From positions 1-64,000 of the forward strand of contig JAZDJQ010000001.1 of assembly GCA_043803765.1 (NCBI GenBank): 64,000 nt of DNA, given 5' to 3'. Below the pieces are notes generated by a model, which saw only the letters and a list, made by a program, of their open reading frames with translations, did no database searches and had not been told where the DNA came from. Positions within the stretch are counted from its first letter, which is position 1. Every line of letters begins with the position of its first letter. The position numbers and the translations under genes were made by a program. This stretch comes from Candidatus Iainarchaeum sp. Lineage in GTDB: Archaea; Iainarchaeota; Iainarchaeia; Iainarchaeales; VGJJ01. This document shows positions 296-48,608 of the stretch, in pieces.

Positions 296-445
296 TTAGA
301 TTCCTTTTTTTATTTTTTCGTCTAATTTCTGTTGGACAAATTTTGATAAATTTAGGGTTGATTTTTCGATAAACTCGGATTGGTCTTGTCTTACAGTAAT
401 GGTCTTTTTGACAAAGGGTTTTCCGTGTTTGGTTATTGGCATCAT
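296..445 (-). CDS. Small ribbon-helix-helix-like DNA-binding protein (49 aa)
   Basis: Manual translation MMPITKHGKPFVKKTITVRQDQSEFIEKSTLNLSKFVQQKLDEKIKKGI; strand-helix-helix pattern; stop abuts the MTase ATG. Confidence 0.65.
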   Translation of the reverse strand: MMPITKHGKPFVKKTITVRQDQSEFIEKSTLNLSKFVQQKLDEKIKKGI

Positions 446-492
446 GGGAAGAATACCTTTTGGTATATAATTGCGTTTTTAGCCATTATACT

Positions 493-550
493 TATGATAT
501 GTATCATACTACTTAATAAGCCTTTTGTAGTAATACGTATTATACGTATA
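493..550. promoter_or_regulatory. Palindromic operator-like sites between divergent RHH/MTase and transposase genes
   Basis: TATGATA-tg-TATCATA (493-508), TAATACGTATTA (531-542), TATACGTATA (541-550). Confidence 0.4.
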
Positions 551-562
551 AGGTGGTTGAAC

Positions 563-1741
563 ATGAACGCAAGAGAATCCAAAGGAATGGCTATCGCCAA
601 AGAGTCAAAAATCATTCAAGCAGTCGGAGGCTATATCGTCCCTTCACAATCAAGCAACAAGAACTATATCGTGCATGGCGAATCCTGCACGTGCCTTGAC
701 CATGAGAGCCGAGGAATGAAGTGCAAGCACGTTTTCGCCGTTGAATACTATCTCCAAAAAATAACCACCGAAAACGGGCAAGTCAAAGTGGAAACTAAAC
801 GATTAACCTATCCCCAAGCATGGAGCGCGTATAACAAATCACAGGAAACCGAAAAAGAACGATTCTTAGAATTACTCTATGACCTCGTTCAAAATGTTCC
901 TGAAAAGGAATATGTGTTTGGTCGCCCTCTCGTTTCAGAAAAAGATTTGCTATTTGCTTCGGTTCTCAAAGTCTATACGGGTTTTTCGTTGCGCCGTTTC
1001 ATGTCCGATTTGAGAGAGTGCGAAAAGAAAGGATTTATCTCAAAAGTCCCGTGCTTTGCGAGTATTGGTCATTTCATGCAACGAAAAGAGATTATTCCCG
1101 TTCTCCAAAAACTAATTTCATTATCGGCTATGCCTTTGCATAGTGTTGAGTCCAAGTTTGCAGTTGATTCAAGCGGATTTAGAACCACACGATTTAACGA
1201 GTATGCCAAACAAAAGCATGGGACAAAGAAGCATCACGAATGGTTGAAGGCGCACATTTGCACGGGAACAAAAACAAACATTATCGCCAGCGTTGAAATA
1301 ACGGGAGAGAACGGTGGCGATTCTCCCCAACTCATTCCACTAACCCAAAAAATAGTGGACAACGGTTTTAACGTGCTTGAATTGAGTGCGGATAAAGCCT
1401 ATTCTTCAAAAGCCAACCTCGAATATGTGGACGAACTCGGCGCAGTTCCGTATATCCCGTTTCGTCAAGGAACGAGCGGAAAACTGCGAGGTGGAAAATT
1501 TATTTGGCGTAAAATGTGGCTTTACTTTCAATACCACCAAGAACAATTCCTCCAACACTACCACGCAAGAAGCAACGTAGAAACAACCTTCCACATGATT
1601 AAATCAAAATTTGGGGACGCCTTGAAGGCAAAAAGTAGGGTTGCCCAAGTGAACGAACTCCTATCCAAGATTCTCTGTCATAACGTAGTCGTGGTCATCC
1701 ACGAGACTAACGAATTGGGCATAAAAGCCAATTTTGTGTAA
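563..1741 (+). CDS. DDE transposase (IS5/IS4-like) with N-terminal SWIM zinc finger
   Basis: CTCLD...CKH SWIM motif; VDSSGF, ADKAY and RSNVETTF catalytic motifs. Likely start ATG 563 after AGGTGG. Confidence 0.88.
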   Translation: MNARESKGMAIAKESKIIQAVGGYIVPSQSSNKNYIVHGESCTCLDHESRGMKCKHVFAVEYYLQKITTENGQVKVETKRLTYPQAWSAYNKSQETEKERFLELLYDLVQNVPEKEYVFGRPLVSEKDLLFASVLKVYTGFSLRRFMSDLRECEKKGFISKVPCFASIGHFMQRKEIIPVLQKLISLSAMPLHSVESKFAVDSSGFRTTRFNEYAKQKHGTKKHHEWLKAHICTGTKTNIIASVEITGENGGDSPQLIPLTQKIVDNGFNVLELSADKAYSSKANLEYVDELGAVPYIPFRQGTSGKLRGGKFIWRKMWLYFQYHQEQFLQHYHARSNVETTFHMIKSKFGDALKAKSRVAQVNELLSKILCHNVVVVIHETNELGIKANFV

Positions 1742-2302: not shown

Positions 2303-2557
2303 TCATTCGGCCGTATTCTTTTTATGACGCACTTTCAATACGGATAATTCTTCGCGTAGTTTTTTGTCCGAATGAAGAATTTGCTTGGCGAGTTTTCCAT
2401 TCAAATCAACCAATTCATTGTGCTTTTCTTCGAGTGATGTTAAACAGTGTGTGATTTGATGATTAGAATACCGTATGAGGTATACTGCCACAAGCATGGA
2501 GATGAGAAACAATCCCGCGGATACAATGATTTCGCCAGCAATCATAAGTAGTACCAC
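2303..2557 (-). CDS. Small membrane protein (TM + coiled coil), paralog of 2562..2825
   Basis: N-terminal TM helix, LIRYSN motif shared with its neighbour. Confidence 0.7.
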   Translation of the reverse strand: MVLLMIAGEIIVSAGLFLISMLVAVYLIRYSNHQITHCLTSLEEKHNELVDLNGKLAKQILHSDKKLREELSVLKVRHKKNTAE

Positions 2558-2561
2558 TCCT

Positions 2562-2825
2562 TCACCTGCTCTTAGATGTTACTGCCTCAGCAACGGGTTT
2601 GGTTTTGTTTTCATGAAGCGCGTGAATCTCTTTGCGGAAGCTGTCTTCATTCATAATGACAGTCTTTGTCAAGCGCGCATTGAGTTTCATCAGTTCCAAA
2701 TTCTTATCACGCAGGGAAGAAATGCTGCTCATTAATTGTTGATTGGAATAGCGAATAAGAAATACGGCGATCGCCATTTGCAGAACAAATAATCCAAGTG
2801 AGACCATCAACTCGGCGGTTACCAT
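2562..2825 (-). CDS. Small membrane protein (TM + coiled coil), paralog of 2303..2557
   Basis: AVFLIRYSNQQL vs AVYLIRYSNHQI; heptad pattern. Confidence 0.7.
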   Translation of the reverse strand: MVTAELMVSLGLFVLQMAIAVFLIRYSNQQLMSSISSLRDKNLELMKLNARLTKTVIMNEDSFRKEIHALHENKTKPVAEAVTSKSR

Positions 2826-4886: not shown

Positions 4887-5864
4887 TTACTCGGTTACGG
4901 TGATTTCAAGGTCAATATAATTTCCGCTTGGAGTTAGAAACCCGTAGGGGGTGTACAATCCTGAATAGTCATCTGCCCATTTTTCATTAAGTTCTTTTGG
5001 TGGGGTAATAGGGTTAATACCAATTGTGTACACCCCGGGGGGGGTATTGGGTTTTACTGTTCCTTCTATGACAACTTTGGTGGCCCATGTAGAACTATAC
5101 TTTGGGAATGTTGGTCCGAGCAGGAAATATGGCTGCCCTGTTTGGTCTTCTGCAATTTTCAAATCAAAAAAATCGGTTCCCTCTTTTCCTGCAACAAGAT
5201 TTATTCCTACATAGTTCTGAATATTCCATCCATTCGTTACAAACACGGTAGCGGTAAACGTTTTTCTGCCAGACAATGAAACCGTGTCAAACTGTTTGTT
5301 AGGATACGTGAGCATGCCATAATCTCCCCAATATTGTAAGTTGGGCTGTGACCATGCCTTGAATGCATAGTTTCGATTAACGCCTGCTGTTTCTAAACCA
5401 TTAAAATAAAACTCGGGCTGTTTGTAATAACCCGGCCCAAGCGTTCCGATTTGATATAACCTGCCTATTTGTAAATCATACGCTACCTCTGCAAAATCGG
5501 CTGGAATGGGGGGTAGACTCAAAAAAATATCTTCTTCATTTGTAATATCACAGCAATCAAAGAAGAATTGTTTAGTTTGTTCGAGTGATTCGTTTCGATA
5601 AATAGAGGCTGATTCAAACAAATCATATTTCTCCCTGTTCACCGAGAAAACTTCTTTCAGGTATTTCGCTTTTGATAATTGTGTTTTGAGAGCATCGGAT
5701 GTTCCGGGAAGAGTAGGCGGAGTTAATGATGTACTTGCCCCTTCTATTGTAGAAGGAATCGTTTCTTGAACAGGGGGGGTTAACAAAAAAAACGCGGCCG
5801 CAACAACGAGAACAATTATTCCAACAACTATCAATAGCGAAAATGTCCCTTTTTTCGATTGCAT
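4887..5864 (-). CDS. Uncharacterised membrane-anchored protein, QPEF/GPTFP family (copy 1)
   Basis: N-terminal TM; LPPIP, YYKQPEFY and LLGPTFPKYSSTW shared with 40837..41652 and 43157..43948. Start taken at MQSKKG. Confidence 0.75.
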   Translation of the reverse strand: MQSKKGTFSLLIVVGIIVLVVAAAFFLLTPPVQETIPSTIEGASTSLTPPTLPGTSDALKTQLSKAKYLKEVFSVNREKYDLFESASIYRNESLEQTKQFFFDCCDITNEEDIFLSLPPIPADFAEVAYDLQIGRLYQIGTLGPGYYKQPEFYFNGLETAGVNRNYAFKAWSQPNLQYWGDYGMLTYPNKQFDTVSLSGRKTFTATVFVTNGWNIQNYVGINLVAGKEGTDFFDLKIAEDQTGQPYFLLGPTFPKYSSTWATKVVIEGTVKPNTPPGVYTIGINPITPPKELNEKWADDYSGLYTPYGFLTPSGNYIDLEITVTE

Positions 5865-5964: not shown

Positions 5965-6603
5965 TCAGCTGAAGTCGGACCCTAATTGGAATGTTGCATT
6001 GTGGTCACCCGAGCTAACAAATCCATTTCCGTCTCCTGAAAAACATAATTCTTGATTACCAAATGTGGCAAGATTGGTAACGACTCTCCCGCCCGCTGTT
6101 TCATTGAATTGATTGAAATTACGACAGGTAGAAGTATCGGGTGCGGTAGTCGAATCCCCCCCCGCAGACGCGGTGCAGTCTTTCTCCCATCCTTCCATTC
6201 CATTTACTCCACAACCCGTGCTTCCAAGCCACACTTTCAACACGACATTGATATCCGCGCCTGCAAAACCGGATGCAAAGTTTCCATCCACATTAGTAGT
6301 AGCGGTTCCCGTGTTGGCAACGGTCATTCCTGCTTGAGTAGCTGTCTGACAATTCGAATCCCCCGCTCGATTGGAGTGTGGAACGGTTCGTGCCCAGTTC
6401 CCATCGCTGTCCGCGTCATATTCCGCTTTCGATTCGGGAAAGAAGAATGCAGAAGAAGTACAAGGAGAACCATACGATACTGAAATAGATTTAGCCGTGG
6501 CCACGAACCATGTCATCGTCGTTTGGGCGACATTCGCAGCGGCAAACGGACCAAGCAAAAGGAAAAGTAAAAACACTCCGGATAGAATGGCAATGCGATT
6601 CAT
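5965..6603 (-). CDS. Secreted Cys-rich beta protein, putative fibre subunit (212 aa)
   Basis: Signal peptide ending AAA; six Cys; clearly homologous to 41649..42866. Confidence 0.75.
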   Translation of the reverse strand: MNRIAILSGVFLLFLLLGPFAAANVAQTTMTWFVATAKSISVSYGSPCTSSAFFFPESKAEYDADSDGNWARTVPHSNRAGDSNCQTATQAGMTVANTGTATTNVDGNFASGFAGADINVVLKVWLGSTGCGVNGMEGWEKDCTASAGGDSTTAPDTSTCRNFNQFNETAGGRVVTNLATFGNQELCFSGDGNGFVSSGDHNATFQLGSDFS

Positions 6604-6704
6604 ACTGAACAGGGTTGGTAGCCATTCGCTCTTTATAAATATCACGGTTGGGGAGATGGGCATAATTAAGTAGGATAAAAGAAATAGTGGAAAATAGGAT
6701 AAAT

Positions 6705-8772: not shown

Positions 8773-9234
8773 TTAGACGGTTCCGCGGCAGCTTCCTGTA
8801 GCGGTAACACCTGTCAACTGACCAGCATCATACGTGATGACGTATGTCAAACTGTATGATCCGGCTGACAATGCATTAGCAGGTGTCAACGTAAGTGTGC
8901 CCGTTTGATTGGGGCTCATAGTGGTGGATCCGCTTGGGGTAACGACTCCTGAAACATAGGTGGTTGCACCCGGATTTGTTCCAGTAATAGTAGCTCCAGT
9001 AATGGTGACACTCTGTCCAGTCTGATTCACGAGTACCAATTGCGATGAAGCAGTTGTCACTTGACTTTGACTCACTGTGAACGGTCCGAACTTGGCATCA
9101 CACTGATTTCCTTGTATCGTGCTGGGGTTGATCAAAACCACCAACGCGGCAACTGCAATCACGATAACGACTAATGCCCAGCCGTACGTCATCAGGTATT
9201 CCAGTGCCGATTGTCCTCGATTCCTGTAATTCAT
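8773..9234 (-). CDS. Type IV pilin (probable major pilin)
   Basis: Class III signal peptide NRG/QSALEYLMTYGWALVVIVI. Confidence 0.9.
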   Translation of the reverse strand: MNYRNRGQSALEYLMTYGWALVVIVIAVAALVVLINPSTIQGNQCDAKFGPFTVSQSQVTTASSQLVLVNQTGQSVTITGATITGTNPGATTYVSGVVTPSGSTTMSPNQTGTLTLTPANALSAGSYSLTYVITYDAGQLTGVTATGSCRGTV

Positions 9235-12035: not shown

Positions 12036-15000
12036 TCATCGGATGCCTGCCCTTTTGAGCACGGTGTCCGGATTGGAATAGTATTCGGCCATCACCCTCC
12101 CCACTTCATTAATATCACGTATTTTTTCTTTTACCATCCAGGTGAGGATTTTTTCTTTTTCGGTTATATTCTGGGTGAGTTCTTGTGCAGTAAACCCGGT
12201 ATGGAGTGCTAACTCGTCAAATAAGCGGATGCTTTCTCCATATTTTTCAATTTTGTCGCTGGCGGCGCGCCATCTAAAAAGAATATTGGGTTTGAGAACC
12301 GTTTTTCCTTCATTTCCTGTTTTTTGTGGAACAAATTCAGCTAGTTGTAGAATACGACGCACTCCTAATCGGCGATTTCGAAACATGACTGCGTTCAAGT
12401 GAACTGCTTCAAGCAAAGAAGGAGCAATATCTATTGGAGGGCTTGTGAGTCGTTGAATGGTTTCCTCTGCAGTGTTAGCGTGGACGGTAGCATACACACT
12501 ATGCCCTGTGTGCATGGCTTCAAACATGACTTCTGCCTCGCGTTGTCGACGCACTTCTCCTACGATGATTCGGTCAGGCCGCATACGCAATGCGTTCACC
12601 AGCAGGTCGAGCATTCCCACTCCGCCTTTTCCTTCTGCGTTTGGTTCACGCGTGGTCATGGGAACCCAATGCAAAAAATCGGGGAGAGTAAGCTCGCGAG
12701 TGTTGTGGCACACCACATTATTGCACACAAAACTCTCATTTCGAGGAACACTAAAATCGTAAACAAATCCTTCGAAAGGTCGGCGTTCGATTGAGACAAC
12801 TTGATCCCATTGTAAATCGTTGAATGCCAAATCATGTAATTGTTTTGGCAAATTGGGATAGTTCGTTACATGTTTTCGTAATAGTTCTCGACCAATATTT
12901 CCAGCATATTTGTATGATTTCCATCCCTTGTAGGTGCGTGATACTCCCACTTCAACTTTCAGGGCTTTCTTTATTTCTTTGTAGAAATGATGGGGTAGTG
13001 GAATTACATCGCTTACATCGTGATTGACTGAGGAAAGCCATTTTGCCGCTTTTTCGGTCTTGTGATTAATGACAAAGCCAATTTGTGAAACAAATTTAGA
13101 AAGGAACTTTTGTCCCGAAATTCTTGATTCGTATGTTTTGTCTTTTTTTAATTTCCATTTAACACGCAAGGAGATACCAAAACGGAGGAGAAGAGTCTGC
13201 GTATCTTTGAGCAGTTGCGCAGAGCTTGAGCCCACTACAATATCATTTTTGCGTACCCATCCATCACCTGAGAAGTATCCGCGCAATACGGCTGCTGCAA
13301 TATTTTTTGGAAGATTAAACACCCATTTGGGCATTTTTTTAGTGTAGGCATTTCCACGAAGATTCATTACACGTTCGACAAATTGTTTGAACGGCTTTGA
13401 GTGAATCATCAATGTAACTCCATCTGAGTGCATCTTGGGGGTGGTTCCGAATCGTTTGGCGATGCGGTGAACAATCTCACGAGCCTCGGGTTCTACAACG
13501 GAAATTAATACACTGTTTTTGTCATAACACCCGTCTGCTAGCCAAAGTCCAACAAAAGTGGCCAAATCCTCATCCACTTCAATATCTAAGGGTAATTGTA
13601 AACCCAACCGCGACGTAATCATCCCTGTTGAAGGAGTGTGGTGAATTTGCTGGAGCAGTTGAATGGAAGCAAGGCCCCTACGTCGTGCCCCGTTGATAGT
13701 ATTTTTGGAATAAGAATCTCGTAAAAGAGACATATTTTCAGTTAAAACAGAACGAATTTCCACACTTCGAACAAAACATCCTTCAAATGCAGATAGGTGA
13801 TGACGTAGATTAAATGAAACTTTTTCGCCGGCCCAATCAAGTTCACGCGGGGTCGCGAGCCATGATCCGACAGAAAGCGATTTTCCAGTAACCTCTGAAA
13901 TTTGGCCCGATTTTCCAATCCCAAAAAGTGAATGATCGGGAGTCACTTCAATTACCCGGCCACTTTTGAAAGTAATCGTAAGTAAATCTTTTTTGACCCA
14001 ATGTCGAATAAAATGACTAGGTTCACGCCACTCTATTTTTCCTTCCTTGGTCATAGACGGGATTTGAATCCCTTCATCATTCTCAATGGAAATGTCACGA
14101 ATGGAATCATCTTCAACAATTCCATCAATCAATTTTCCCACCGTCGTTTTAACGGTCTTGTTTTCAAGTTGATAGAGAATTTCCATTTCCCCGGATACAC
14201 TGTCTTCAATCGTGAGAACGCGTTGATTGGGCTGGATGAAAGGCAGCAGCACATTCAACAACGTTGTTTTTCCGCTCCCTGTTCCTCCCGATACCATAAT
14301 GTTGAGCTCGTATTCCATGGCGAGCCAAAGAATGGCGGTAGCATCAGGAGTAGACGTTCCAGCGTTAATGAAATCGGTTGCGGTCCATGGGTCACGGCGG
14401 AAGCGGCGAATAGTAATCGTGTTACCTCGTGAAGAAATAGGAAAAAGAGACGCATTGGCCCTATCTCCTGTAACAAGATGCGCATCTAAAAGTGGATTGA
14501 GTATGGTGACTTGTTTTCCTACGCGCCGGGCAATGATGCTGGCATAGTTTTGAATTTCGGCTTCCGGATGAATCGTAATATTAGTTTTCAACCATCCATG
14601 TTTTTTGTGATACACCCAAACAGGTTCGGTTGCAGAGTTTACTACAATTTCTTCCAAGTTGCCATCATATAATAGGTATTCAATCGGACCTAATCCTGCC
14701 ATTTCATTGACCATGACACTGGCTAGTTTTTCTCTAGACAAAGGGGGAAGGGATGAAAGGGAAGTAGTGAGAAGTGCCATTGCTTTTTCATGGAATGTTT
14801 TCTTTAGATCGGCTACGAATTTTGAATCAAGCATTTTTTCGGATGAGATGTTAACTTCCGTCACGATTTTTGTTTTCATGTCGTTGAGCATGGCTCGTGT
14901 TCCTGCTCCAAATTCGGGAAGATGTAACACATATCGTTTTACAAAATCATTTTCTTCTTTTCCCACATCAACAGTAATAGGAATGTCAGCAGCAACAACA

Positions 15001-15071
15001 TAGGTTTCATCGAGTTTGAATGACATCACATCACGCTTCCGGATCCTTGTATAGGATAAGGGGTTCTCCAA
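12036..15071 (-). CDS. Type II/IV secretion ATPase (VirB11/CpaF/FlaI-like), intein-containing
   Basis: GGTGSGKTT, TIED/TREL, LRMRPDRIIVGEVR, TGHSVYATVHA. True start may be ATG 15026. Confidence 0.92.
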   Translation of the reverse strand: MENPLSYTRIRKRDVMSFKLDETYVVAADIPITVDVGKEENDFVKRYVLHLPEFGAGTRAMLNDMKTKIVTEVNISSEKMLDSKFVADLKKTFHEKAMALLTTSLSSLPPLSREKLASVMVNEMAGLGPIEYLLYDGNLEEIVVNSATEPVWVYHKKHGWLKTNITIHPEAEIQNYASIIARRVGKQVTILNPLLDAHLVTGDRANASLFPISSRGNTITIRRFRRDPWTATDFINAGTSTPDATAILWLAMEYELNIMVSGGTGSGKTTLLNVLLPFIQPNQRVLTIEDSVSGEMEILYQLENKTVKTTVGKLIDGIVEDDSIRDISIENDEGIQIPSMTKEGKIEWREPSHFIRHWVKKDLLTITFKSGRVIEVTPDHSLFGIGKSGQISEVTGKSLSVGSWLATPRELDWAGEKVSFNLRHHLSAFEGCFVRSVEIRSVLTENMSLLRDSYSKNTINGARRRGLASIQLLQQIHHTPSTGMITSRLGLQLPLDIEVDEDLATFVGLWLADGCYDKNSVLISVVEPEAREIVHRIAKRFGTTPKMHSDGVTLMIHSKPFKQFVERVMNLRGNAYTKKMPKWVFNLPKNIAAAVLRGYFSGDGWVRKNDIVVGSSSAQLLKDTQTLLLRFGISLRVKWKLKKDKTYESRISGQKFLSKFVSQIGFVINHKTEKAAKWLSSVNHDVSDVIPLPHHFYKEIKKALKVEVGVSRTYKGWKSYKYAGNIGRELLRKHVTNYPNLPKQLHDLAFNDLQWDQVVSIERRPFEGFVYDFSVPRNESFVCNNVVCHNTRELTLPDFLHWVPMTTREPNAEGKGGVGMLDLLVNALRMRPDRIIVGEVRRQREAEVMFEAMHTGHSVYATVHANTAEETIQRLTSPPIDIAPSLLEAVHLNAVMFRNRRLGVRRILQLAEFVPQKTGNEGKTVLKPNILFRWRAASDKIEKYGESIRLFDELALHTGFTAQELTQNITEKEKILTWMVKEKIRDINEVGRVMAEYYSNPDTVLKRAGIR
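12702..14201 (-). mobile_element. Intein (500 aa) with LAGLIDADG homing endonuclease
   Basis: Begins Ser (SVSGEM) after IED, has VTPDHSLF (block B), GLWLADG and RGYFSGDG, VYDFSV, and ends CHN before Thr+1. Confidence 0.93.
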
Positions 15072-21374: not shown

Positions 21375-22538
21375 TCATCCCTCGAATGTCTGGGCGGCGA
21401 CTACATCCCCAAACGGATTAACCAGTGTGGCAGTAGTTCCAATTGTCTTCCAGAGCGGAGCAGTTTGATTAAGATAAATAATGCTTGTTGAATCCACCCC
21501 TTTGCCGGTGAACACTTTAGCTGACCCGTTCAAAATGTACGGTGTTGGAAACGTGATAAGGAGATTTCCATCTTTCAATAATGAAAAATTGGATAACTCG
21601 AGCGGTTGTAAAGCAGTGAATTCGATGAACTCGTTGGAGGTAAACCCTTCATCCACTTCGGTTTCGGTAATGATGACTAGTGGGGAACCATCCGGTCCGA
21701 AACCGGGGTTAGTATAGCCGCAGTCATAGCTGAAATAGAGTGGAATAATTTCATAGAGACAAGAACCCATACAGGAATAATGCTGCCACACTTTTGTAGT
21801 ATCCACACAAGTGTAGGTGTCGGGCCCGCACGTAGCCGATGAACAACTGTCTTCGGATTCAGTAAGGGAAAGTTCGCTCTCAGAAAGAATTTCCTCATTC
21901 ACTGTTTCAGAATTGAATGCGATTGTTTCCGTCGCCCAAACCCTGTCGAATAATGCAAAATAAGGATAACGTGAAATGTCCTCGCATACGACATGAATAA
22001 CATCGGGTTCGGCTGCATAAATTCTAGGATTAGAACCAAATAATACCGCACTTCTATCCACGATTAGAAAATTGGTTCCTATAAAATGACTAATATTTTT
22101 CACTCGAATAGTAGCCCCCTCAAGAAGAAAGCTCGGGTTTAGTGAAGCATCCAACACCAAATCAACGCGAACACCCCGCTTGATAGCTAAACGTAAGTGA
22201 TCCCTAAACTCTTTAGGGGAAGGGGTGCGAAGAACCGCTTCAATTGAAATGGATGCCGAGTCCACGTGCGTGAGGAGTTTTTCCAGACAGTCTTGGGAAG
22301 AACAATCATAGGTTTGGGCACATTGGAGTTGAGCATGCTCTTTTGCTTTAGCCACATCGATTCCTTGTTGAATGGTGATAGGTTGTGGAGGAAGTTCACT
22401 CGAATAAGTTGGGCGTGTTTGTTCCAGAGGAAAAAAAAGAATCAACAATCCGGCAACAGCAATAATGGCGATTGGTCCAATGAGCCATTTCCAATCAAAT
22501 CGAAAAGAGGACAACGCATCAGCATCATTATCGGGCAT
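21375..22538 (-). CDS. Membrane-anchored PLD-fold + lamin-tail-domain protein (HKD motif degenerate)
   Basis: AIKRGVRVDLVLD, GTNFLIVDRSAVLFGSN; C-terminal IITETEVD..NEFIEF..TATLVNPFGDVV. Confidence 0.7.
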   Translation of the reverse strand: MPDNDADALSSFRFDWKWLIGPIAIIAVAGLLILFFPLEQTRPTYSSELPPQPITIQQGIDVAKAKEHAQLQCAQTYDCSSQDCLEKLLTHVDSASISIEAVLRTPSPKEFRDHLRLAIKRGVRVDLVLDASLNPSFLLEGATIRVKNISHFIGTNFLIVDRSAVLFGSNPRIYAAEPDVIHVVCEDISRYPYFALFDRVWATETIAFNSETVNEEILSESELSLTESEDSCSSATCGPDTYTCVDTTKVWQHYSCMGSCLYEIIPLYFSYDCGYTNPGFGPDGSPLVIITETEVDEGFTSNEFIEFTALQPLELSNFSLLKDGNLLITFPTPYILNGSAKVFTGKGVDSTSIIYLNQTAPLWKTIGTTATLVNPFGDVVAAQTFEG

Positions 22539-24139: not shown

Positions 24140-24540
24140 GTGTTCGTCACACTCGCATTCACATCACCCATCGAAATTGCCAGCGTGTAAATCCCCGCAT
24201 CATGGTACAAGTATGCCGGCATAATGTTCGTTTTAGTGAATGCAAACAAAGTACTGCTCCCCCCTAATTGAGAAAGAGTAGCACGAACCGTATTCTGTCC
24301 GACTCGAAATTCAGTCAACCCAACAGGAAGTTGCACATCCACTAACACCGTGTTTCCAGGCCCTTTAGCATACACAAAATCAACTGTCGCCGCCACCTCA
24401 TCTACGGCAGCCTGCGATTGAATAAGTTGGACAGAACTAGAATAGGACACGAATGCATACGCAAATAGGATGGCAGAAAAAAGAAGGAGGAAAGCCGTAA
24501 AGGTAAGATACTCCAACCCAACTTGCCCACGGAAGCGCAT
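24136..24540 (-). CDS. Minor type IV pilin
   Basis: FRG/QVGLEYLTFTAFLLLF; VYAKGPG. Confidence 0.85.
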   Translation of the reverse strand: MRFRGQVGLEYLTFTAFLLLFSAILFAYAFVSYSSSVQLIQSQAAVDEVAATVDFVYAKGPGNTVLVDVQLPVGLTEFRVGQNTVRATLSQLGGSSTLFAFTKTNIMPAYLYHDAGIYTLAISMGDVNASVTNT

Positions 24541-40836: not shown

Positions 40837-41652
40837 CTACTCTTTTACGTGCAATAGAAGTGTCGCCAGTCCTTCCGTGTCAATAATGATAGTGTTAACT
40901 TGTATGTAGGGGGGGTATTTTTCCATCCATTCCTTTTCTAGTAATGGGTTGGGTTCTTTTGCATAAATTCGTAGAACATATTCTTTTGTCCCTTCGGTTG
41001 GAGTGATTGTTCCTCGTATTCTTATTTTTTTCATCCATTCGGGCGAGAATGCTGGGAACGTTGGTCCAACGAGTATGTCGTTGGGTTCGAAATCTACTGC
41101 GTAGGTTGTTTCGGGTTCGATGGTGGTGCGAAAACTCAGTCCTTGATAGTAGGTGCTTCCCCACCCTCCTCCAATGAATAGGGTAGTGTCGAACTCCGTT
41201 TCTTGAGTGGAAATGACAGCTTCTTGCGTGGCAGGGGTGGATTGGATTCCAATGGTGTATGTCTTATTTTCGGGGGCGTTTATCCATGTGTTTATTCCTG
41301 TTGTATGGAACGTGGGGTGAAATTCGGGTTGCATATATGTTGCGTTTGTTATTTCTGCTAACTTGTTCATGTTTCCATCTTTCCATACTTGTGTGTGTTC
41401 TTCAAATTGTGTGGGCATTGCAGGTAATTGTGTAAAAATTTCTTTTTCGTTGTTTAATCCATATACTTCTTTGAAAAATTTTTCTACTTCCTCGAGAGTG
41501 ACTCCTTTTTTTTGGGCTCGTTGTTCAAAAATGTGGTGATTATGAATTTTTTCTATTGGTTCTGTTTTGGGTATTGTTTTAGTTGTATCATCGTGGATGC
41601 ATCCTGTCATTAGAATGAGTAGTATGATTCCTATTTTTTTCCAATCCATCAT
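40837..41652 (-). CDS. Lipoprotein-like QPEF/GPTFP family protein (copy 2)
   Basis: MMDWKKIGIILLILMTGC; LPAMP, YMQPEFHP, LVGPTFPAFSPEW; start overlaps the upstream stop. Confidence 0.78.
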   Translation of the reverse strand: MMDWKKIGIILLILMTGCIHDDTTKTIPKTEPIEKIHNHHIFEQRAQKKGVTLEEVEKFFKEVYGLNNEKEIFTQLPAMPTQFEEHTQVWKDGNMNKLAEITNATYMQPEFHPTFHTTGINTWINAPENKTYTIGIQSTPATQEAVISTQETEFDTTLFIGGGWGSTYYQGLSFRTTIEPETTYAVDFEPNDILVGPTFPAFSPEWMKKIRIRGTITPTEGTKEYVLRIYAKEPNPLLEKEWMEKYPPYIQVNTIIIDTEGLATLLLHVKE

Positions 41653-42866
41653 GAGTAATCTGCCCCTGCTTGGAATACTTTGTTGTGGTCTCCTGCCGAA
41701 ACGAATCCGTTGAAATCTCCCGAGAAGCACAATTGGTTGGTATCTTCTGCCCCTAATCCTGTGATGAGCCGGCTGGCAATGGTCGCGTTGCCCGAGTCCC
41801 ATTTTTTGCAGGCGGTGGATGTTATGGGGTTGGTAGTTCCGGTCACGCTGCAGGGTTCTTCCCATCCTCCCATTCCCCATGTTCCGCATCCATTGCCCGT
41901 TCCCATCCATGCTTTCAGCACGATATTGGCATCGCTTCCGGAGAATGCACTGGTGAAGTTGCCGTCAATATTAACCACCACGTTTCCCGTGTTGGTGATC
42001 GTGTAGGGAGATAGTGTGTTGTCTTGGCAGAAATTGGCTCCATAGTAGATAGTGGCATAGGCTAAATCGGAGAATAGGCATTGGATGCCCGCTCCCGAAG
42101 TAGCTACGTATCCTTGGATAAGTAGTGTTACATTCTGGTCGGATGCAATGTAGGGGGTCATGTCACCATATATTTCTCCATAAAATGAACGTATGTTGAG
42201 TCCGGTTGAAAATTGCTCTAATGGTAATGATGCTATTGCTTCATAGGTGCCGCTGTTGTAGTTCCAGATGAACATATTGATATCAACTGATCCGCCACCT
42301 GCGCTAGGACACCCCGCGGCCCCTCCATGAGCATCTCCTGCGTAATCGAATCGTATTCCCGAAACCGTGTTTTCGTTTTCTGCGATGGGAACTACGAATC
42401 GTGCGGTGGGGGCGTTTCCAATACCACTTGTTCCAGTGTAGGCATACTCTCCATCTACTTCATATCGCACGGTGATTGCATCATATTCGCTGGTATTGAA
42501 TTCGGTGGTGGGGGTGTTGTTGTTGGTTGGGGGTTTTCCTGTGCCGTTTCCGTCATAGATGTAGTAGGTGCTGCTGGGAGAGGTTACCCCTTGGTAGTTG
42601 TATTCTTTTTCTGTTGTTTCGTTTCGGTTGGCGGTCGGTCGTACTTTTGCCGCGTTTCCATCATCATCCGGGTCGTATTGGGCGTTTCCTTCTACGAAGA
42701 AGAATGCGTCTGCCGCACAACTTCCTCCGTATGTGATGGTGATGCTTCGTGTGCTGGGTACGTTGAATGTGAATGTGGTGGTTGCGGTTGTTGCGGCGTT
42801 CAGGAGGGGCATGCTGATGATTAGTATGAGAAGCAATCCGATGGTTATTGTTGTTCTCCTGCTCAT
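41649..42866 (-). CDS. Secreted putative fibre subunit with ~190-aa inserted domain (405 aa)
   Basis: Signal peptide; both ends align with 5965..6603 (AFFF.E, DGN, CQ, GCG, LCFSGD.NGFVS.GDHN). Confidence 0.78.
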   Translation of the reverse strand: MSRRTTITIGLLLILIISMPLLNAATTATTTFTFNVPSTRSITITYGGSCAADAFFFVEGNAQYDPDDDGNAAKVRPTANRNETTEKEYNYQGVTSPSSTYYIYDGNGTGKPPTNNNTPTTEFNTSEYDAITVRYEVDGEYAYTGTSGIGNAPTARFVVPIAENENTVSGIRFDYAGDAHGGAAGCPSAGGGSVDINMFIWNYNSGTYEAIASLPLEQFSTGLNIRSFYGEIYGDMTPYIASDQNVTLLIQGYVATSGAGIQCLFSDLAYATIYYGANFCQDNTLSPYTITNTGNVVVNIDGNFTSAFSGSDANIVLKAWMGTGNGCGTWGMGGWEEPCSVTGTTNPITSTACKKWDSGNATIASRLITGLGAEDTNQLCFSGDFNGFVSAGDHNKVFQAGADYS

Positions 42867-43156: not shown

Positions 43157-43948
43157 ATGCGTAACGATTTTCCTTTTTCGCTTTCCCCCAGTGTTTTTCG
43201 GATAATCGCTTTTTTTATTTTTGGAGTAGTGGTTTATTTTTTGTATTCTTCTTTTTTTTCTTCCCCTTCCCATTCTATTTTTGTGGTGGATGATATTGTG
43301 GGTTGTGAGAATCTGGATCGTTCTTCGTATGGTGTTTCTTCTTCTATTTTTGGTGATCTTCCTTCTCCTCCTAAGTGTTTTGTTTCTATTCTTTCTGCTT
43401 TTCGTAACCGGTCTTTTGTTGATCTTAATTTTTTTGATTCGTCGTATTATCTTCAGCCAGAGTTTTATCCTAATTTTTTGTCTGAGGGTCTGCGTGTGTG
43501 GAAGAATCCGGATGATGCTCATTATGGAGTAGTGGGTTATGGTTCCTATCCTTCCCATTCCGATGTTCGTGTTGTTGCTCCTACAAAAGTGTATTTTTTT
43601 GTTTTTTCTGGGTTTGGGGTTCGGAGTGTTCAATCTGTTTCTCTTCGCGTTGTTTTTGAGAATCCGTCCGATGCTAATTATTTTTCTGTTTCATTAGATG
43701 AGGATACTTCGCAGGATTTTTTATTGGGCCCTACTTTTCCTAAGTTTCATCCTTTGTGGGTGCATCCGGTTATTCTGACGGTAATTCCTCTTGATTCTTC
43801 GTCTTCTCATTCGGCTACTATTTCAATCCAGACGGTTCGTTCGCTGGCGGATTTTTCTTCGGATCCTATCACGGAATTGTTTCTTTTTTTTGATTCGACG
43901 GATTATGTCGGGGGTCGGCAGGTTTATCGTTTGACTATTCGTGAGTGA
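43157..43948 (+). CDS. Membrane-anchored QPEF/GPTFP family protein (copy 3)
   Basis: TM; LPSPP, YYLQPEFYP, LLGPTFPKFHPLW. Confidence 0.75.
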   Translation: MRNDFPFSLSPSVFRIIAFFIFGVVVYFLYSSFFSSPSHSIFVVDDIVGCENLDRSSYGVSSSIFGDLPSPPKCFVSILSAFRNRSFVDLNFFDSSYYLQPEFYPNFLSEGLRVWKNPDDAHYGVVGYGSYPSHSDVRVVAPTKVYFFVFSGFGVRSVQSVSLRVVFENPSDANYFSVSLDEDTSQDFLLGPTFPKFHPLWVHPVILTVIPLDSSSSHSATISIQTVRSLADFSSDPITELFLFFDSTDYVGGRQVYRLTIRE

Positions 43949-44030
43949 TTTTTATTCAGTTTCTTTAATTGTTCTCATTGGGGCCGTGTTTAACGTCATT
44001 CATTTTAAATCAAAAGTTCCCCTTTTCTTG

Positions 44031-47000
44031 ATGTCTTTCGTTCATGGAAGAGTGTTGATTCATTGTCTTAGTGTTCTTTTTCTTGTTGCGGTGATATCAT
44101 GGCCGGTGATTGGTCAGGAGTTGATAGTGGAGCGGGTCTTGCCGGATGCTCCTCTTTTTTCTATTATATCCCCTCTTGATAATGATGGGGTGAGTGGGGA
44201 TGTTCTTTTTATCATTAAGCCTTCTTCTCCTCTTTCTCGTTCATCCATTCGTTTGATGGATCGTTCTTCTGATTTTGTTTCTTCTTTTTCTGAGTCGGAA
44301 TCCTATACGGTTTCATGGCCTTCTTTATCCGTGCGGGATGGGGAGTATTCTTTTGAGATTTCGGCTTGTGATGATTCGCGTTGTGAGACGCGTGAGTTAA
44401 GTGTTCGAGTAAGAAATGGGCTTGAGGATGTTTCTGTTTCTCCAGATGATTCTACCGTTTCTCCTGTTTCGGATGATTCCATTCCAAGCGGCAGTTCTTC
44501 TTCTCCTTCTTCTTCTCGTCCGGATGTTCGTGAATCCAATCGTTCATCTTCTACTATTTCGGTGACTCCTTCTAATCATGTTGGGGCATTCTCTTTGTAT
44601 CGTGGTTCGACTCAAAAAAACTCGACGGGGGATGATTTTGTGATTCGTCCCGGTTCGTATTCGGTGGATGCTCATTTTTTGGAGAATGCGTTGAATGTGC
44701 ATGTTGAGAATGTTCGTCTTGATTCTTCTAATGTTTTGTTTTTTTTTGAAAACGATGTGTTGGATTCTTTTTCTATCGGGAAAGTTAAGTATTCTGTTTC
44801 CCGTTCTTCTTCATTATCTATTCCTTATTCCTTTGGTTCTGCCTCGCTCGATCTTGCAGGAGAGCCTCTTTCCTATAATTGGATTTGTTTGAGTTGGTCT
44901 CGTTCTAGGGAAAAGTGTGAGAGTGAGTGGGTTTCTCCTTCTTCTTCTCTTTTTACTTTTGATTTTGTTTCATCCGTTGTTGTTTTGGCTCATGCTGCTC
45001 CCGTGGCTGTTCCTACTGCCCCTGCGGGTGTTCCTACCCCCGTGTCAACGGTTTCTCCTGTTGTTCGTCCGGTCGTTGTTTCTCCGGGCGTTGTGTCTCC
45101 TCCTGTTGTTTCTCACGATGATGTTGTTTCTCTCTCTGCTTCCAATCTTCCTGCACGCGCTATTTTGTTTGATGGGAATGGGAATGAGATTCGTTCTTCT
45201 TCTGGGCGTTTTGATGTTGCGAAGGGTGTTTATGATGTAGGTATTTTCTTTATTGATTCTCCTATTGGTTTCGTTTTTCTTGAAAATGTCCGTGTTGACC
45301 AGAATGGGGTGTTGCTCATTGCAGATGATTCGGTTGATTATTCTTCTATTTCTTCTCCTCCTGATTCGAATTGGTTGGGGATTGTTTCTTTTGATTCTGA
45401 ATATTCTTTTTCTGCCGGGCTTGTTTCGATTCGTCCTCCCGAGAGTGTGAGTGGATATTTTGAGTGTTCTTCTTGGGATGTGAGGGAGAAAAAGTGTTCG
45501 GTTTCATTTGAACCTGTTTCTTCTTCTGATTCAATGGGAGATCTTTCTCCTCTTTTTTCCCGTTTTCGTGAGTCCTTGCCCGATTCGGCTCAATTTTCTT
45601 TTGTTTCTCTCCCTCTTGCATACGGTTGGAGTGTTTCTCCTATGAATATTCTTTTGGAACAGCCCTTGCTTAGTTTTGCAGCTAATGATATTCCGCATAT
45701 GAAGGCGACTGTTTCTAATTATTTCATTGATTCGGGGGATGTTCCTATTGTTGCTTCTCTTACTTTTCCGGATGGTTCGGTTCATGATTTGGATTCAAAT
45801 GCGATTGTTCCTCTTTCAAGTGGAGAATTTGATATTTTTCCTTTTCGCCCTCGTAATTTTGTTCCCGGGTTGTATACGATTACCGTGAAGGGTAAATCCA
45901 ATAGTGAGTCGCTTGTTTCTTCACGTCCTTCTGTTGTTTCTTTTTCTCCTCCTTCGTCTTCTCCTTCTTCTCTTTCATTTGCTTCTCCTCCCGTTTCTGC
46001 TTCTCGTTCATTTTATTGGGGTCTTGTTGCGGTGAACACGATGCATAGTATTTATCGTCCGGGGGAAACTGCTGAGTTTGAGATTGTGGTATTGGATAAG
46101 GAGAGTTTTGGGGTGAAGGGTGCTTCGGTTACTCTTTCAATCACGTCTCCCATCTCGGGTTCATCTAGCGTACTTTCTACTCCTTCTGGAATATTGGAGA
46201 CGACAACGCCGGGTATTTACATTGCCAAGCTTCCCGTAACCGAGGAGGGAACTTATCGTGTTTTGGTTGATGCGTTAGCCGATGGTATTGATTCGTCTAT
46301 TCAAACTACTTTTGATGTTCATTCTCGTTATGATTTTGATATTGTTCGTTGGACGGCTACTAAAATAGATCCTGCTCGTCTTCCCGTCCCTGTCGAATTG
46401 ACGATTAGTCCTGTTTCGAGCACGGTAAAGAATGTTACTGTTCGTGAGTTTGTTCCTAAAGAGTTTGATATTGTTTCGGATCAAAACGTTTGGGTGTATG
46501 AGACCGCGAATGAGAAGGTGATTGAGTGGAGAAGTGTGGCGTTGGATTCCAATGCTCCTGCGGTATTATCTTATTCTTATTCGGTTCCAGACCTAAAACC
46601 GTGGTTGTATCTTTTGGGTCCTATTGAAGTGAGTCCTATTTCTTCTATTCCTTCTCCTCGTGATTCTTTTTGGGAGGCGCGTAGTTGGATGGTGGCCGTG
46701 GATGAAAATCCTACTTCCAAATTGTTCTTTCGTCGAACGGGGTTTAGGACGGTCGCCGTGGAGCCGTCGCCGAATGATGTGAATTGTGGGGTGGGGTGTG
46801 ATATTGATTCTTACCTTGCGGGGGTTCAGTCCTTGTATAACCTTTCCGATATCAATGGGACTACTACCGATACGAACGCGGGGGTTACGGGAACGACGGC
46901 AGGTATTAAGAAATATTTTTCAGCGGTATCGTGGGCGCTTGTTCCGCAGACGATTGTTACCTCCGGTACGTGGATGGCTGGAATTGCGTGTATCACCGGC

Positions 47001-48608
47001 AGTACCCTTGATAATAACACGGCTCCTGCTTTTGCTATTTATCGCTGGATTGCTGAAACGGATAGCAATGGAGAACGTATCGTGAGTCGATTTAATGCTT
47101 CCGAGATGTGTCCTATTACAACGGCGGCAATGCGCCAAAACACTAAAGCGGGAAACGTATCGAGTGTTACTTTTAATCGGGGGGACAAAATCGTGGTGGA
47201 GGTCTTGGCGGCAGTGAATTCCACTGTCCCGCCGCCTACTAGTCGTACTATTAGTTATCGTTTTGGAAATTCGAGTACCCCAAATGATGGTAATGTTATT
47301 CTTCCTTCGGGTGTTACGTTGCGTTTTGTCGGAGACGCTAATACGATGTTGGTTTCTCCGTCGAATGATTCGAATAAGGCGATTAATGTTCCTTTTGTAG
47401 TGGATACGAATGCGACGTGCGAGCCCCATTTGGATAATGAGTCCTCTTATTTTGATTGTGGGGATGTGAATGCGGTTCTCCAGTATTGCGTCCTCTCTTC
47501 CGGTCAGTGTGGGTCATTCTCCGACATGAATTCGGATTCTTCTTCTCCTTTGTATATTTCAAGCGGTTCTTTTGTGCAGAGTGATGATGTTCTCAATATG
47601 AGTGACACGAATACGTTTTCTTTTACTGTTTCCGGGACGCAGGTTGGGAGTTACACGTTGCGTTCCAAGGTTGATGGGGATTGGCTTCTTGCTACTAAGT
47701 ATTCTAGTGGTGCGAATGATCGTAATATCACTATTTATGTTCCCCCCGATATTAACATCACCAAACTGGATGGTTATCTGGATACTGGCGATTTTCCTGT
47801 TTTCAATTATTTTGTTGATGGAAATCTCATGATTGATTTTAATGTGTTAAGTGTTGATAGGAATAGTTTGTTGTTGGATTTGAATTATTCTTCTTCTGCT
47901 TCCCCGTATACGGGAACGGCGGTTGTGGATGATGTTAATTTGTCATTGCTTCCTTCTTCGGGTTCTTGGTATTGTGATGATACTGATTTCACTGATATGA
48001 CTACTTGTGGGATTGATTGGAATATTTCAGCAGTAGCGGATGGTAATTATTGGATTCATGCTACGTTATCCGATTCGTTGAATAATATTGATATCGATGT
48101 TTCCGATCGGAATGTGGGAATTGGGAATTTTGTTCCGCCTGATTATTCTTTTGTTCTTTTCCTTCCTTCTTCGGGTTGTACATTAGGGAAGGGTAATATT
48201 ACGGGGGGTGTTTCCTGTCAAAAGGGATACATGGAGTCCACCGACACGACGGGTGTTTCGGATGCTAATCAGATTGCTCCAGAGGGTCAGTCTGCCTCGG
48301 TTCCTTTTTTTGTTTATGATAATCAGTCTTCTACTTCTTCTGATTTGAATATTGTTTTGGATTTGAATACTGCTCTTTCTGCAGAGCTTCGTCTTAAGGC
48401 TTCCTTGAGTGCTTCCGGGTATGAATCGGGTTGTTCGGGTGATACTGCTGTTGGGTGTATTCTTCTTTCTACTTCTACTCAAAATATTGGTAAGGCGGTT
48501 TATTCGGTTGGTTCGCAGGATTTGAATGTCTGGTTTTGGGGTGATTTTGTTTTGGCTTCGGTTGGGAGTTCGGATGTGAATGTGGATAGTAACAGCATCA
48601 GTCCGTGA
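44031..48608 (+). CDS. Giant secreted multi-domain surface protein with C-terminal subunit-like domain
   Basis: Signal peptide, Ig/MG2-like domains (IYRPGETAEFEIVVLD), no C-terminal TM; last ~155 aa resemble 5965..6603. Confidence 0.75.
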   Translation: MSFVHGRVLIHCLSVLFLVAVISWPVIGQELIVERVLPDAPLFSIISPLDNDGVSGDVLFIIKPSSPLSRSSIRLMDRSSDFVSSFSESESYTVSWPSLSVRDGEYSFEISACDDSRCETRELSVRVRNGLEDVSVSPDDSTVSPVSDDSIPSGSSSSPSSSRPDVRESNRSSSTISVTPSNHVGAFSLYRGSTQKNSTGDDFVIRPGSYSVDAHFLENALNVHVENVRLDSSNVLFFFENDVLDSFSIGKVKYSVSRSSSLSIPYSFGSASLDLAGEPLSYNWICLSWSRSREKCESEWVSPSSSLFTFDFVSSVVVLAHAAPVAVPTAPAGVPTPVSTVSPVVRPVVVSPGVVSPPVVSHDDVVSLSASNLPARAILFDGNGNEIRSSSGRFDVAKGVYDVGIFFIDSPIGFVFLENVRVDQNGVLLIADDSVDYSSISSPPDSNWLGIVSFDSEYSFSAGLVSIRPPESVSGYFECSSWDVREKKCSVSFEPVSSSDSMGDLSPLFSRFRESLPDSAQFSFVSLPLAYGWSVSPMNILLEQPLLSFAANDIPHMKATVSNYFIDSGDVPIVASLTFPDGSVHDLDSNAIVPLSSGEFDIFPFRPRNFVPGLYTITVKGKSNSESLVSSRPSVVSFSPPSSSPSSLSFASPPVSASRSFYWGLVAVNTMHSIYRPGETAEFEIVVLDKESFGVKGASVTLSITSPISGSSSVLSTPSGILETTTPGIYIAKLPVTEEGTYRVLVDALADGIDSSIQTTFDVHSRYDFDIVRWTATKIDPARLPVPVELTISPVSSTVKNVTVREFVPKEFDIVSDQNVWVYETANEKVIEWRSVALDSNAPAVLSYSYSVPDLKPWLYLLGPIEVSPISSIPSPRDSFWEARSWMVAVDENPTSKLFFRRTGFRTVAVEPSPNDVNCGVGCDIDSYLAGVQSLYNLSDINGTTTDTNAGVTGTTAGIKKYFSAVSWALVPQTIVTSGTWMAGIACITGSTLDNNTAPAFAIYRWIAETDSNGERIVSRFNASEMCPITTAAMRQNTKAGNVSSVTFNRGDKIVVEVLAAVNSTVPPPTSRTISYRFGNSSTPNDGNVILPSGVTLRFVGDANTMLVSPSNDSNKAINVPFVVDTNATCEPHLDNESSYFDCGDVNAVLQYCVLSSGQCGSFSDMNSDSSSPLYISSGSFVQSDDVLNMSDTNTFSFTVSGTQVGSYTLRSKVDGDWLLATKYSSGANDRNITIYVPPDINITKLDGYLDTGDFPVFNYFVDGNLMIDFNVLSVDRNSLLLDLNYSSSASPYTGTAVVDDVNLSLLPSSGSWYCDDTDFTDMTTCGIDWNISAVADGNYWIHATLSDSLNNIDIDVSDRNVGIGNFVPPDYSFVLFLPSSGCTLGKGNITGGVSCQKGYMESTDTTGVSDANQIAPEGQSASVPFFVYDNQSSTSSDLNIVLDLNTALSAELRLKASLSASGYESGCSGDTAVGCILLSTSTQNIGKAVYSVGSQDLNVWFWGDFVLASVGSSDVNVDSNSISP

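Follow-up and report, generated by a model that had tools for sequence, protein, structure and literature searches.

A candidate donor-strand fibre subunit with a membrane-anchored partner in an order of Iainarchaeota

Surface fibres that are assembled by donor-strand exchange with the help of a chaperone were long known from Gram-negative bacteria only. Here we describe a locus in an archaeon, Candidatus Iainarchaeum sp., that may encode a fibre of this kind. The window, by which we mean the whole stretch of 64,000 nucleotides that was analysed (contig JAZDJQ010000001.1), contains near its start the gene of a small protein, P0001, in which a strand-like segment, TTMTWFV, follows a predicted signal peptide. 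Our proposal, held with about even confidence, is that P0001 builds the shaft of a surface fibre and would be assembled by donor-strand exchange with a membrane-tethered, chaperone-like helper, as an archaeal analogue of the Elr/WxL and Pam pili. Polymerisation by strand exchange in any form, a chaperone-free one included, appears fairly probable to us, given the position and conservation of the strand, a weak fold resemblance and the logic of the operon. That P0001 inserts its strand into a neighbour is what we infer.

In 2026 chaperone-dependent donor-strand fibres were described in Gram-positive bacteria (Elr/WxL, bioRxiv 10.64898/2026.10.17.759780) and in Candidate Phyla Radiation bacteria (Pam, PMC13278184). 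According to the preprint, the Elr/WxL pilus of Enterococcus faecalis has ElrD and ElrC as pilins, ElrE as a membrane-anchored chaperone, ElrA at the tip and ElrB at the base, and the WxL system is found in Bacillota only. In ElrD a donor strand of 15 residues at the N-terminus precedes an incomplete sandwich, the tip adhesin ElrA has its pilin domain at the C-terminus and carries a variable payload, and ElrB is described there with a donor strand and an anchor and without an acceptor domain (10.64898/2026.10.17.759780). For the Pam pilus the preprint names PamA, PamB, PamE and PamT as pilins, PamC and PamD as membrane-anchored PapD-like chaperones and PamR as the anchor; the terminator has a transmembrane helix and an N-terminal strand (PMC13278184).

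In archaea, donor-strand filaments of the TasA superfamily have been described: the cannulae (CanA, CanX), the AbpA bundling pili and the Saci_0406 threads (PMC12518558, PMC9715654, PMC9245690). These are reported as chaperone-free or of unknown assembly. In cannulae calcium primes donor-strand complementation, and for cannula-like monomers AlphaFold2 mostly predicts an unstructured N-terminus (PMC12518558). Among the papers listed by our literature searches we found no description of a chaperone-coupled donor-strand system of the kind proposed here in archaea.

The features of the locus are listed in Table 1. They could work together as follows, where every step after export is our reconstruction. 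P0001 would be exported by the Sec pathway, and removal of its signal peptide would leave the amphipathic strand TTMTWFV free at the N-terminus, ahead of a disulfide-stabilised beta-sandwich that misses one strand. A partner protein, anchored in the membrane by its N-terminus, would hold the subunit via a PapD-like sandwich and would give way once the next subunit supplies its own strand. A 667-residue protein, whose mature form begins with the same strand and which has a membrane helix at its C-terminal end, would plug the last subunit and tether the fibre. A long, insert-bearing paralog of P0001 and a 1555-residue surface protein would employ the family domain to attach their adhesive payloads, each with a partner paralog of its own, and a DxDxDGN loop may add calcium dependence. 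The locus holds a candidate for each part of a chaperone-guided donor-strand pilus; none of them is a member of those families by sequence.

Table 1. Features of the candidate fibre locus, with positions in the window
Feature	Position	Strand	Basis or remark
Two paralogous small proteins (87 and 84 residues), transmembrane helix and coiled coil	2303..2825	-	Downstream of the 667-residue protein gene; conserved in 11 loci
667-residue protein, candidate base anchor: signal peptide, STTTW..Y.V.L.Y..C, immunoglobulin-like domains, coiled coil, C-terminal transmembrane helix	2832..4835	-	
Partner 1: N-terminal transmembrane helix, Pro/Thr linker, helical domain, predicted PapD-like beta-sandwich	4887..5864	-	Directly downstream of P0001; start at Met10 of the open reading frame
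P0001, short family member, candidate fibre subunit	5965..6603	-	212 residues; open reading frame and homologues
D-A-D-S-D-G-N loop, residues 63-69 of P0001, possible calcium site	6397..6417	-	Conservation in the alignment
TTMTWFV, residues 28-34, candidate donor strand of P0001	6502..6522	-	Conservation and AlphaFold2 model
Predicted Sec-type signal peptide of P0001, residues 1-23	6535..6603	-	Probable cleavage after A-x-A; consensus F-A-S-A/N-V (slash marks the cut); helix 2-21 in the model
Partner 2: lipobox-type N-terminus (LMTGC), clade of the long members	40837..41625	-	After the long paralog
Long family member (paralog), loop insert of ~200 residues, N-terminal strand TTFTFNV	41649..42866	-	BLASTP, profile search
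Partner 3: clade of the giant proteins	43157..43948	+	Overlaps the start of the 1555-residue protein gene
1555-residue surface protein, candidate adhesin with family-like C-terminal domain	43941..48608	+	
DYSFVLFLPSSGC, strand-like segment directly before the family-like domain	48141..48179	+	Conserved in 4 of 5 giant homologues
Putative distant family-like domain, residues ~1421-1538 of the 1555-residue protein	48201..48554	+	hhalign

Compared with the Elr/WxL pilus, as the preprint describes it, the locus shares an amphipathic strand at the mature N-terminus (here a putative donor) ahead of a sandwich that may here, too, be incomplete, a candidate chaperone tethered to a single membrane, a candidate base subunit that combines such a strand with a membrane anchor, and adhesins in which a C-terminal pilin domain would serve as attachment module for a variable payload. 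Further, the model of the partner matches WxLIP of Enterococcus faecium (9i1y) with Z 9.0, rmsd (root mean square deviation) 3.7 and 107 aligned residues. The differences are also clear: Pfam gives no WxL, DUF916 or DUF3324 match here, and the partner is anchored by its N-terminus (or has a lipobox), consists of a helical domain and one sandwich, and falls into three class-specific clades. The host is an archaeon with no cell wall and no sortase. Strand exchange has been shown for Elr, whereas for P0001 it is our reading.

The resemblance to Pam lies in the ultra-small, episymbiont-type host with a single membrane, in immunoglobulin-like (Ig-like) pilins with paired cysteines that exchange, or here may exchange, donor strands, in chaperones (here a candidate one) with a transmembrane helix and in a terminator (here a candidate as well) that combines such a helix with an N-terminal strand. 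In contrast to our candidates, the Pam pilins have two domains and donate a linker strand, and each Pam chaperone combines a pair of PapD-like domains with a helix at the C-terminus. We found no sequence relation between the two systems, of which one is bacterial and the other archaeal.

With the TasA-type filaments P0001 has in common a Sec-type signal peptide and, judged from its model, possibly a jelly-roll or Ig-like sandwich; the N-terminal strand is donated there, and these filaments supply the best fold neighbours of the P0001 model (Z 4.8-6.7). As in the cannulae, there is a possible calcium site and AlphaFold2 leaves the N-terminus unstructured. However, beside every subunit gene of our family stands an obligatory membrane-anchored partner, where the TasA-type filaments are described as chaperone-free or of unknown assembly; there is no PF12389 match or other sequence link; and here we find three disulfides and a DPANN host instead of Thermoproteota. 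The classical chaperone-usher pili (Fim, Pap, Caf1, Csu, CFA/I) are alike in the fold neighbours of the subunit (CsuA/B at Z 6.3-6.4; FimA, CfaB and CooA at about 5.1-5.6) and of the partner (Caf1M, CsuC, FaeE, DraB, EcpB, YadV, SafB), as well as in tip adhesins with a C-terminal pilin domain. They differ from the locus in that here there is no usher, no outer membrane, no second chaperone domain in the partner and no Pfam membership.

The subunit, its strand and its family

P0001 starts with the signal-peptide-like MNRIAILSGVFLLFLLLGPFAAA, followed by NVAQ-TTMTWFV-ATAK-SISVSYGSPC, so that the strand begins four residues past the predicted cleavage site. An alternative, longer open reading frame starts at 6663 and contains a TATA-like tttataaa at 6632-6639, which may be the promoter element of P0001. 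We prefer the Met at 6603, because the aligned starts of all homologues compared (34 of 34) coincide with it and because the tttataaa lies inside the longer frame.

The conservation of the strand is high. Among 35 aligned close homologues T28, T29, M30, T31 and W32 are invariant, as are six Cys (48, 85, 131, 143, 160, 187) and, towards the C-terminus, L186, C187, S189, G190, G199 and H201. When the comparison is widened to 37 aligned sequences, some as little as 25% identical to P0001, no other window of seven residues is as conserved as TTMTWFV (3.42 bits per column against a mean of 2.41). The conservation of the strand, the cysteines and the C-terminus is far beyond chance; it is a real and highly non-random observation. 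An earlier note on this DNA had pointed to a strand at the mature N-terminus, to six cysteines in register with a paralog and to a nearly invariant C-terminus, and all of this is borne out.

D63, D65, D67 and N69 are invariant in the same 35 sequences, with weaker conservation among distant members. DxDxDG is a calcium-binding motif.

Where P0001 has its strand, the long paralog carries ATTATTTFTFNV. The two proteins match by BLASTP with E 2e-37 in the C-terminal half and 1e-12 in the N-terminal part, with all six Cys aligned, and the insert of the paralog follows its first 80 residues and separates the two matching parts. In the genome to which the window belongs (1.02 Mb, 19 contigs, 93% complete) a hidden Markov model (HMM) search finds only two family copies, both in the window.

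A word-indexed search gave 41 family proteins at E <=0.001 among 226 candidates; their named sources are Candidatus Diapherotrites or unclassified archaeal metagenome-assembled genomes. An exhaustive phmmer search of 1.84 billion cluster representatives (clusters of 50% identity) gave 48 at E <=0.001 and 35 at <=1e-10. The short form, which carries no payload, is highly conserved, with 60-76% identity. Among 201 genomes sampled across the phylum the family is present in 40, all within the order of the window, and it is found in all 17 other genomes of the window's own taxonomic family. Two genomes, G014 and G056, have tandem arrays of family genes. Some family genes elsewhere (in G023, G033 and G056) contain one internal stop.

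The position of the strand was surveyed in 87 family proteins, 62 of which match the pattern 'strand ... Y-G-x-x-C'. Among these, 58 have the strand at the very start of the mature protein, where it begins 24-49 residues after the annotated start, immediately behind a signal-like stretch and 3-6 residues past an A-x-A site. The other four are three N-terminally truncated records, one of them a shortened translation of the paralog, and one protein with an internal strand (P0056, at residue 425). In P0053 and P0059, inspected by eye, the strand comes after large N-terminal domains and a linker rich in Pro, Ala and Thr, so in the N-terminally extended homologues (P0053, P0056 and P0059) the strand is kept internally. 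In P0047, P0054, P0059 and P0064 large extra domains are found in a second loop (after GGW..C) or at the C-terminus, besides the insert site of the paralog. The domain tolerates payloads at several sites.

Known sequence families say little about the subunit. Neither Pfam (E up to 1) nor NCBIfam gives a match for P0001, the paralog or 37 members of the family. In particular, there is no match to the WxL pilin family PF13731 for P0001 or the 37 members, and a search of the genome for PF12389 (Peptidase_M73), which represents the TasA superfamily, gives no match with E up to 10. A profile search of the sequences in the Protein Data Bank (PDB) with the subunit returns just a cyanovirin at E 0.62. 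For P0001 the Protein Atlas gives unnamed clusters only; a WxL cluster with feature score 0.83 and structure rows in PF12389 clusters are both below the bar of the tool.

The AlphaFold2 monomer of P0001, made from the 35-sequence alignment, has a mean predicted local distance difference test score (pLDDT) of 75 and a predicted TM score of 0.69. A confident beta-sandwich spans residues 90-200, where block means are about 80-93. Scores are lower over residues 21-90 (51-66), and the core of the strand, residues 30-33, is below 50 with no strand assigned.

In a structure search of 48,161 representative chains, 16 of the 25 best matches of this model are donor-strand filament subunits or pilin domains, counted from their titles. 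Among the best are the cannula-like tube Hyper2 (Z 6.5, rmsd 5.1, 137 aligned), the Csu pilus (Z 6.4, rmsd 3.4, 114 aligned) and the Pyrodictium cannulae (Z 6.4), followed by TasA (5.8) and AbpA (5.7), while PapG, FimA, CfaB, CooA, FimH and the Saci_0406 thread match at Z 4.8-5.5, with the thread at 4.8. When the 1000 best Foldseek candidates are realigned, donor-strand subunits take 23 of the 24 best places, led by CanA (7uii) with Z 6.7, rmsd 3.5 and 118 aligned. The guide value for Z is 8, and lower values are common for models with no clear match; because of this the enrichment of donor-strand subunits is suggestive, not proof.

These neighbours also raise the question of whether a chaperone is needed at all. 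P0001 might polymerise by itself into a donor-strand fibre that is primed by calcium, in the manner of cannulae, TasA or threads, with the partner as a surface anchor or in some other role. The top fold matches (CanA, Hyper2 and CanX, TasA, AbpA) and the invariance of the DxDxDGN loop in the 35 sequences agree with this, as do the Atlas neighbours in PF12389 clusters, rated under the bar. Cannulae are reported to need calcium and donor-strand complementation and no chaperone (PMC12518558). However, the sequence searches above give no link to TasA, and the strict adjacency, the co-occurrence and the PapD-like fold of the partner would be left with no role; we therefore regard a chaperone-free fibre as quite improbable.

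A monomeric protein, either soluble or on the surface, for example a glycan-binding module or an S-layer accessory whose N-terminus is a processing or recognition motif, appears very improbable. Foldseek does give weak matches to the carbohydrate-binding modules CBM32 and CBM61 (E 0.05-0.13), and the sequence families put no other constraint on function. However, these matches have TM scores of only about 0.2-0.3, weaker than the matches to filament subunits, and a monomer would explain neither the partner nor the strand in common with the anchor protein nor the modular fusions.

The membrane-anchored partners

The proposed helper is encoded next to the subunit, and each family-type gene in the window has its own. 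The three partners of the window are 25-28% identical to each other (E 5e-22 and 3e-14). In 30 related loci from other genomes a partner gene always adjoins the family gene: 28 loci have it as the next gene downstream, in the same orientation, and two (L019, L020) have it directly upstream. In one locus, L028, three tandem long-form genes are followed by a single partner. Across the 201 genomes 39 have both genes and 159 have neither; the partner occurs alone in two, and the family alone in one, as a weak match with three stops. We give no statistic on this co-occurrence, because related genomes are not independent.

In a maximum likelihood tree of 32 partner sequences three groups are seen, and they coincide with the class of the adjacent gene. 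The partners beside long or N-terminally extended forms (9 sequences) have support 100/100, those beside giant proteins (7 sequences) 97/92, and those beside short forms (16 sequences) 81/67. A giant protein with a family-like C-terminal domain adjoins six of the seven partners in the second group. Two changes of neighbour class, the fewest possible, account for the labels on this tree.

In the partner model (pLDDT 87) a transmembrane helix and a disordered linker are followed by a helical domain (47-163) and then by a beta-sandwich (175-315). This sandwich (residues 173-316) matches Ig folds of the PapD-like, ASH and MSP types with Z up to 10.0, among them the PapD-like domains of HYDIN (Z 8.9) and CEP192 (Z 8.6-9.5). 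Pilus chaperones match slightly lower (EcpB 8.2, YadV 8.2, SafB 7.8). Foldseek reports Caf1M at E 6.7e-5, together with CsuC, FaeE and DraB, and also the N-terminal domain of GH123 enzymes at 1e-5. The model thus has a PapD-like Ig fold in its sandwich, a fold that is very common. It does not have two Ig-like domains forming an L-shaped cleft.

By sequence, the partners stand apart from the known chaperones. In the 32 sequences Pfam gives no match of any kind (E up to 0.1), and so none to PF00345/PF02753, WxL, DUF916 or DUF3324, and the arrangement of DUF916, DUF3324 and a C-terminal membrane helix is absent, the anchor of the partner being N-terminal (a transmembrane helix or a lipobox). NCBIfam has no match for the three partners of the window; Amuc_1099_fam, proposed for one partner, was disregarded, as it scores 17.9 bits against a cut-off of 50. 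The Protein Atlas gives only generic Ig-like leads (<=0.85). The aligned partners have no invariant Cys, His, Ser or Asp, which counts against an enzyme.

The close tie between partner and neighbour allows for another explanation, the main rival of our proposal. The family domain could be a docking module that binds its cognate membrane-anchored partner one to one, in the manner of cohesin and dockerin, with no polymer. It would display nothing in the short form, a loop-inserted domain in the long form and a giant adhesin in the third, and its strand would belong to its own sandwich or augment the sheet of the partner. Cohesin and dockerin are alike in that a displayed module pairs specifically with a sandwich anchored in the membrane or the wall, and the partner sandwich also matches the cohesin CaCohA2 (Foldseek E 4.3e-5). 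The agreement of partner clades with gene classes, the separate partner of each family-type gene in the window, the near-perfect agreement in presence and absence, and the strand retained in the N-terminally fused and giant forms all fit docking. For the class-specific clades and the strand in the fused forms, docking is at least as good an explanation as the donor-strand reading.

However, the three long-form genes with one partner in L028 and the tandem arrays in two genomes do not fit one-to-one pairing, and the fold neighbours of the subunit are mostly polymerising subunits and not dockerin-like modules. The family domain is a sandwich of about 190 residues instead of a small calcium-binding dockerin, and no sequence relation was found. 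The same strand at the start of the 667-residue membrane protein would be left with no explanation, and the degree of identity among the payload-free short forms is odd for a mere anchor. In general we find docking rather unlikely.

Two further observations concern the partner genes in other genomes. A stop or a frameshift breaks the gene into two reading frames in L004 (2023-3096) and L007 (6706-7829). The contig of L010 (JAGVNS010000104.1) is titled 'Thaumarchaeota archaeon'; this label or the binning looks wrong, because its partner is 70% identical to that of the window and the gene order is the same.

The candidate anchor and the candidate adhesin

In addition to the features in Table 1, the 667-residue protein has a Gly-rich linker and a basic tail. 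Homologues are found in 16 of the 30 loci (BLASTP E <=1e-5), in 14 of them downstream of the partner on the same strand; of the other two, the one in L018 is a weak match that directly abuts the partner and the one in L019 is on the opposite strand. An alignment of 13 homologues shows [ST][ST]xTW at the mature N-terminus, and a strand and a Cys come next. In the window this N-terminus is STTTWSPHLEAGYIVSLNYTTC in the 667-residue protein, against TTMTWFVATAKSISVSYGSPC in the subunit. When all six-frame open reading frames of the genome are searched for a signal-like stretch followed by [ST][ST]x[ST]W, four match: two spurious frames of 66 and 77 residues, the subunit and the 667-residue protein. 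Judged by sequence, the strand motif common to these two proteins is specific within the genome. The two small proteins encoded downstream, with a transmembrane helix and a coiled coil, match no family.

The 1555-residue protein was taken in the earlier note as a terminal subunit, an adhesin fused to a copy of the family domain that appears to lack the strand. The relation of its C-terminal domain to the subunit is distant. BLASTP gives E 0.34, the HMM search gives no match, and a profile comparison from the single sequence reaches 21.6%. When the C-termini of five giant proteins are aligned and compared with the family profile by hhalign, the match is 92.5% with E 4.9e-7 over 116 columns, and it begins at the 'Y-G-x-C' landmark and extends as far as the 'D-F' close to the C-terminus. 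By this profile-profile comparison only, the domain appears to be a distant relative of the family.

Directly upstream of the domain the giant proteins have a conserved segment, [DE][YFL][ST]F[VSA]L.[LY]P[SA][ST]GC, which in the window is DYSFVLFLPSSGC. The segment is kept in four of the five aligned homologues, and the fifth is a fragment that does not cover this region. Its alternating pattern and the Pro that trails it are also found in many family members, and we infer that the segment is equivalent to TTMTWFV. If anything, the adhesin-fused copy therefore keeps a strand, and the argument from a strandless tip has to be given up.

For head-to-tail polymerisation, which the earlier note inferred, the outcome is divided. 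The position of the strand (58 of 62), its conservation, its lack of a place in the monomer model, the weak fold neighbours and the parts of the operon speak for it, and the argument from the adhesin is lost. The obligatory membrane-anchored partner and the anchor protein that shares the strand had been overlooked.

Several results weigh against a chaperone-assisted donor-strand fibre. On the side of the subunit, the Foldseek search of the PDB with the model gives nothing at E <=0.001, and every fold match is below the guide value (at most 6.7), in a range that may reflect a common arrangement only. The low confidence extends over residues 21-90, so the unplaced strand may simply be a consequence of the shallow 35-sequence alignment. 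Further, the next strand follows TTMTWFV after 4-5 residues, often with a Pro, as in the A/A' strand of a self-contained Ig-like domain. The fused forms keep the strand internally, unlike the tip adhesins FimH or ElrA.

On the side of the other proteins, the partner has one sandwich and a helical domain and not the two-domain layout of PapD or of DUF916/DUF3324, it matches a cohesin as well, and its three clades, which track three neighbour classes, fit one-to-one docking at least as well as a shared chaperone. Finally, a comparison of the 667-residue protein with the family profile falls short of significance as homology (E 0.02 over 26 columns, with no match in global mode); for this reason we treat the N-terminus that it shares with the subunit as a motif and not as homology.

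Surroundings and implications

The window also contains a type IV pilus-like locus. An intein that includes a LAGLIDADG endonuclease domain interrupts the T2SSE gene of this locus, which encodes a type II/IV secretion-type ATPase (12036-15071, minus strand). Signal peptides of class III (type IV pilin-like) are present in three proteins: RGQSALEYL at 8773-9234, KGQVSVEYL at 22538-24139 and RGQVGLEYL at 24136-24540, all on the minus strand. They adjoin two T2SSF genes and KaiC-like genes. The gene at 8773-9234, together with KaiC-like and DUF7504 genes, keeps its position next to the subunit operon in 10 related loci. A gene for a DDE transposase (380-1741, plus strand) borders the conserved operon, just past a gene with a tRNA-editing domain (1817-2296).

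The base composition is not constant over the window. The AT skew of the plus strand changes from about +0.23 to +0.40 at 24-34 kb to -0.13 to -0.48 at 36-64 kb, and the negative region spans genes on both strands. Around 30-38 kb the GC content drops to 0.34-0.39.

A wider reading, which we put forward tentatively and as somewhat short of an even chance, is that the locus encodes a native archaeal chaperone-guided donor-strand pilus: a so far unnamed family of one Iainarchaeota order, with a single-sandwich chaperone in three clades (for the shaft subunit, the loop-insert adhesins and the giant tip adhesins) and a coiled-coil stalk that plugs the base of the fibre by its TxTW strand, and used as an organ of attachment to a host. 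The family itself is compact, with about 190 residues, three disulfides and a possible calcium switch. If the proposal holds, the assembly logic of chaperone-guided pili would extend to the third domain of life, and there would be a concrete candidate for how the tiny, probably host-dependent cells of DPANN archaea attach.

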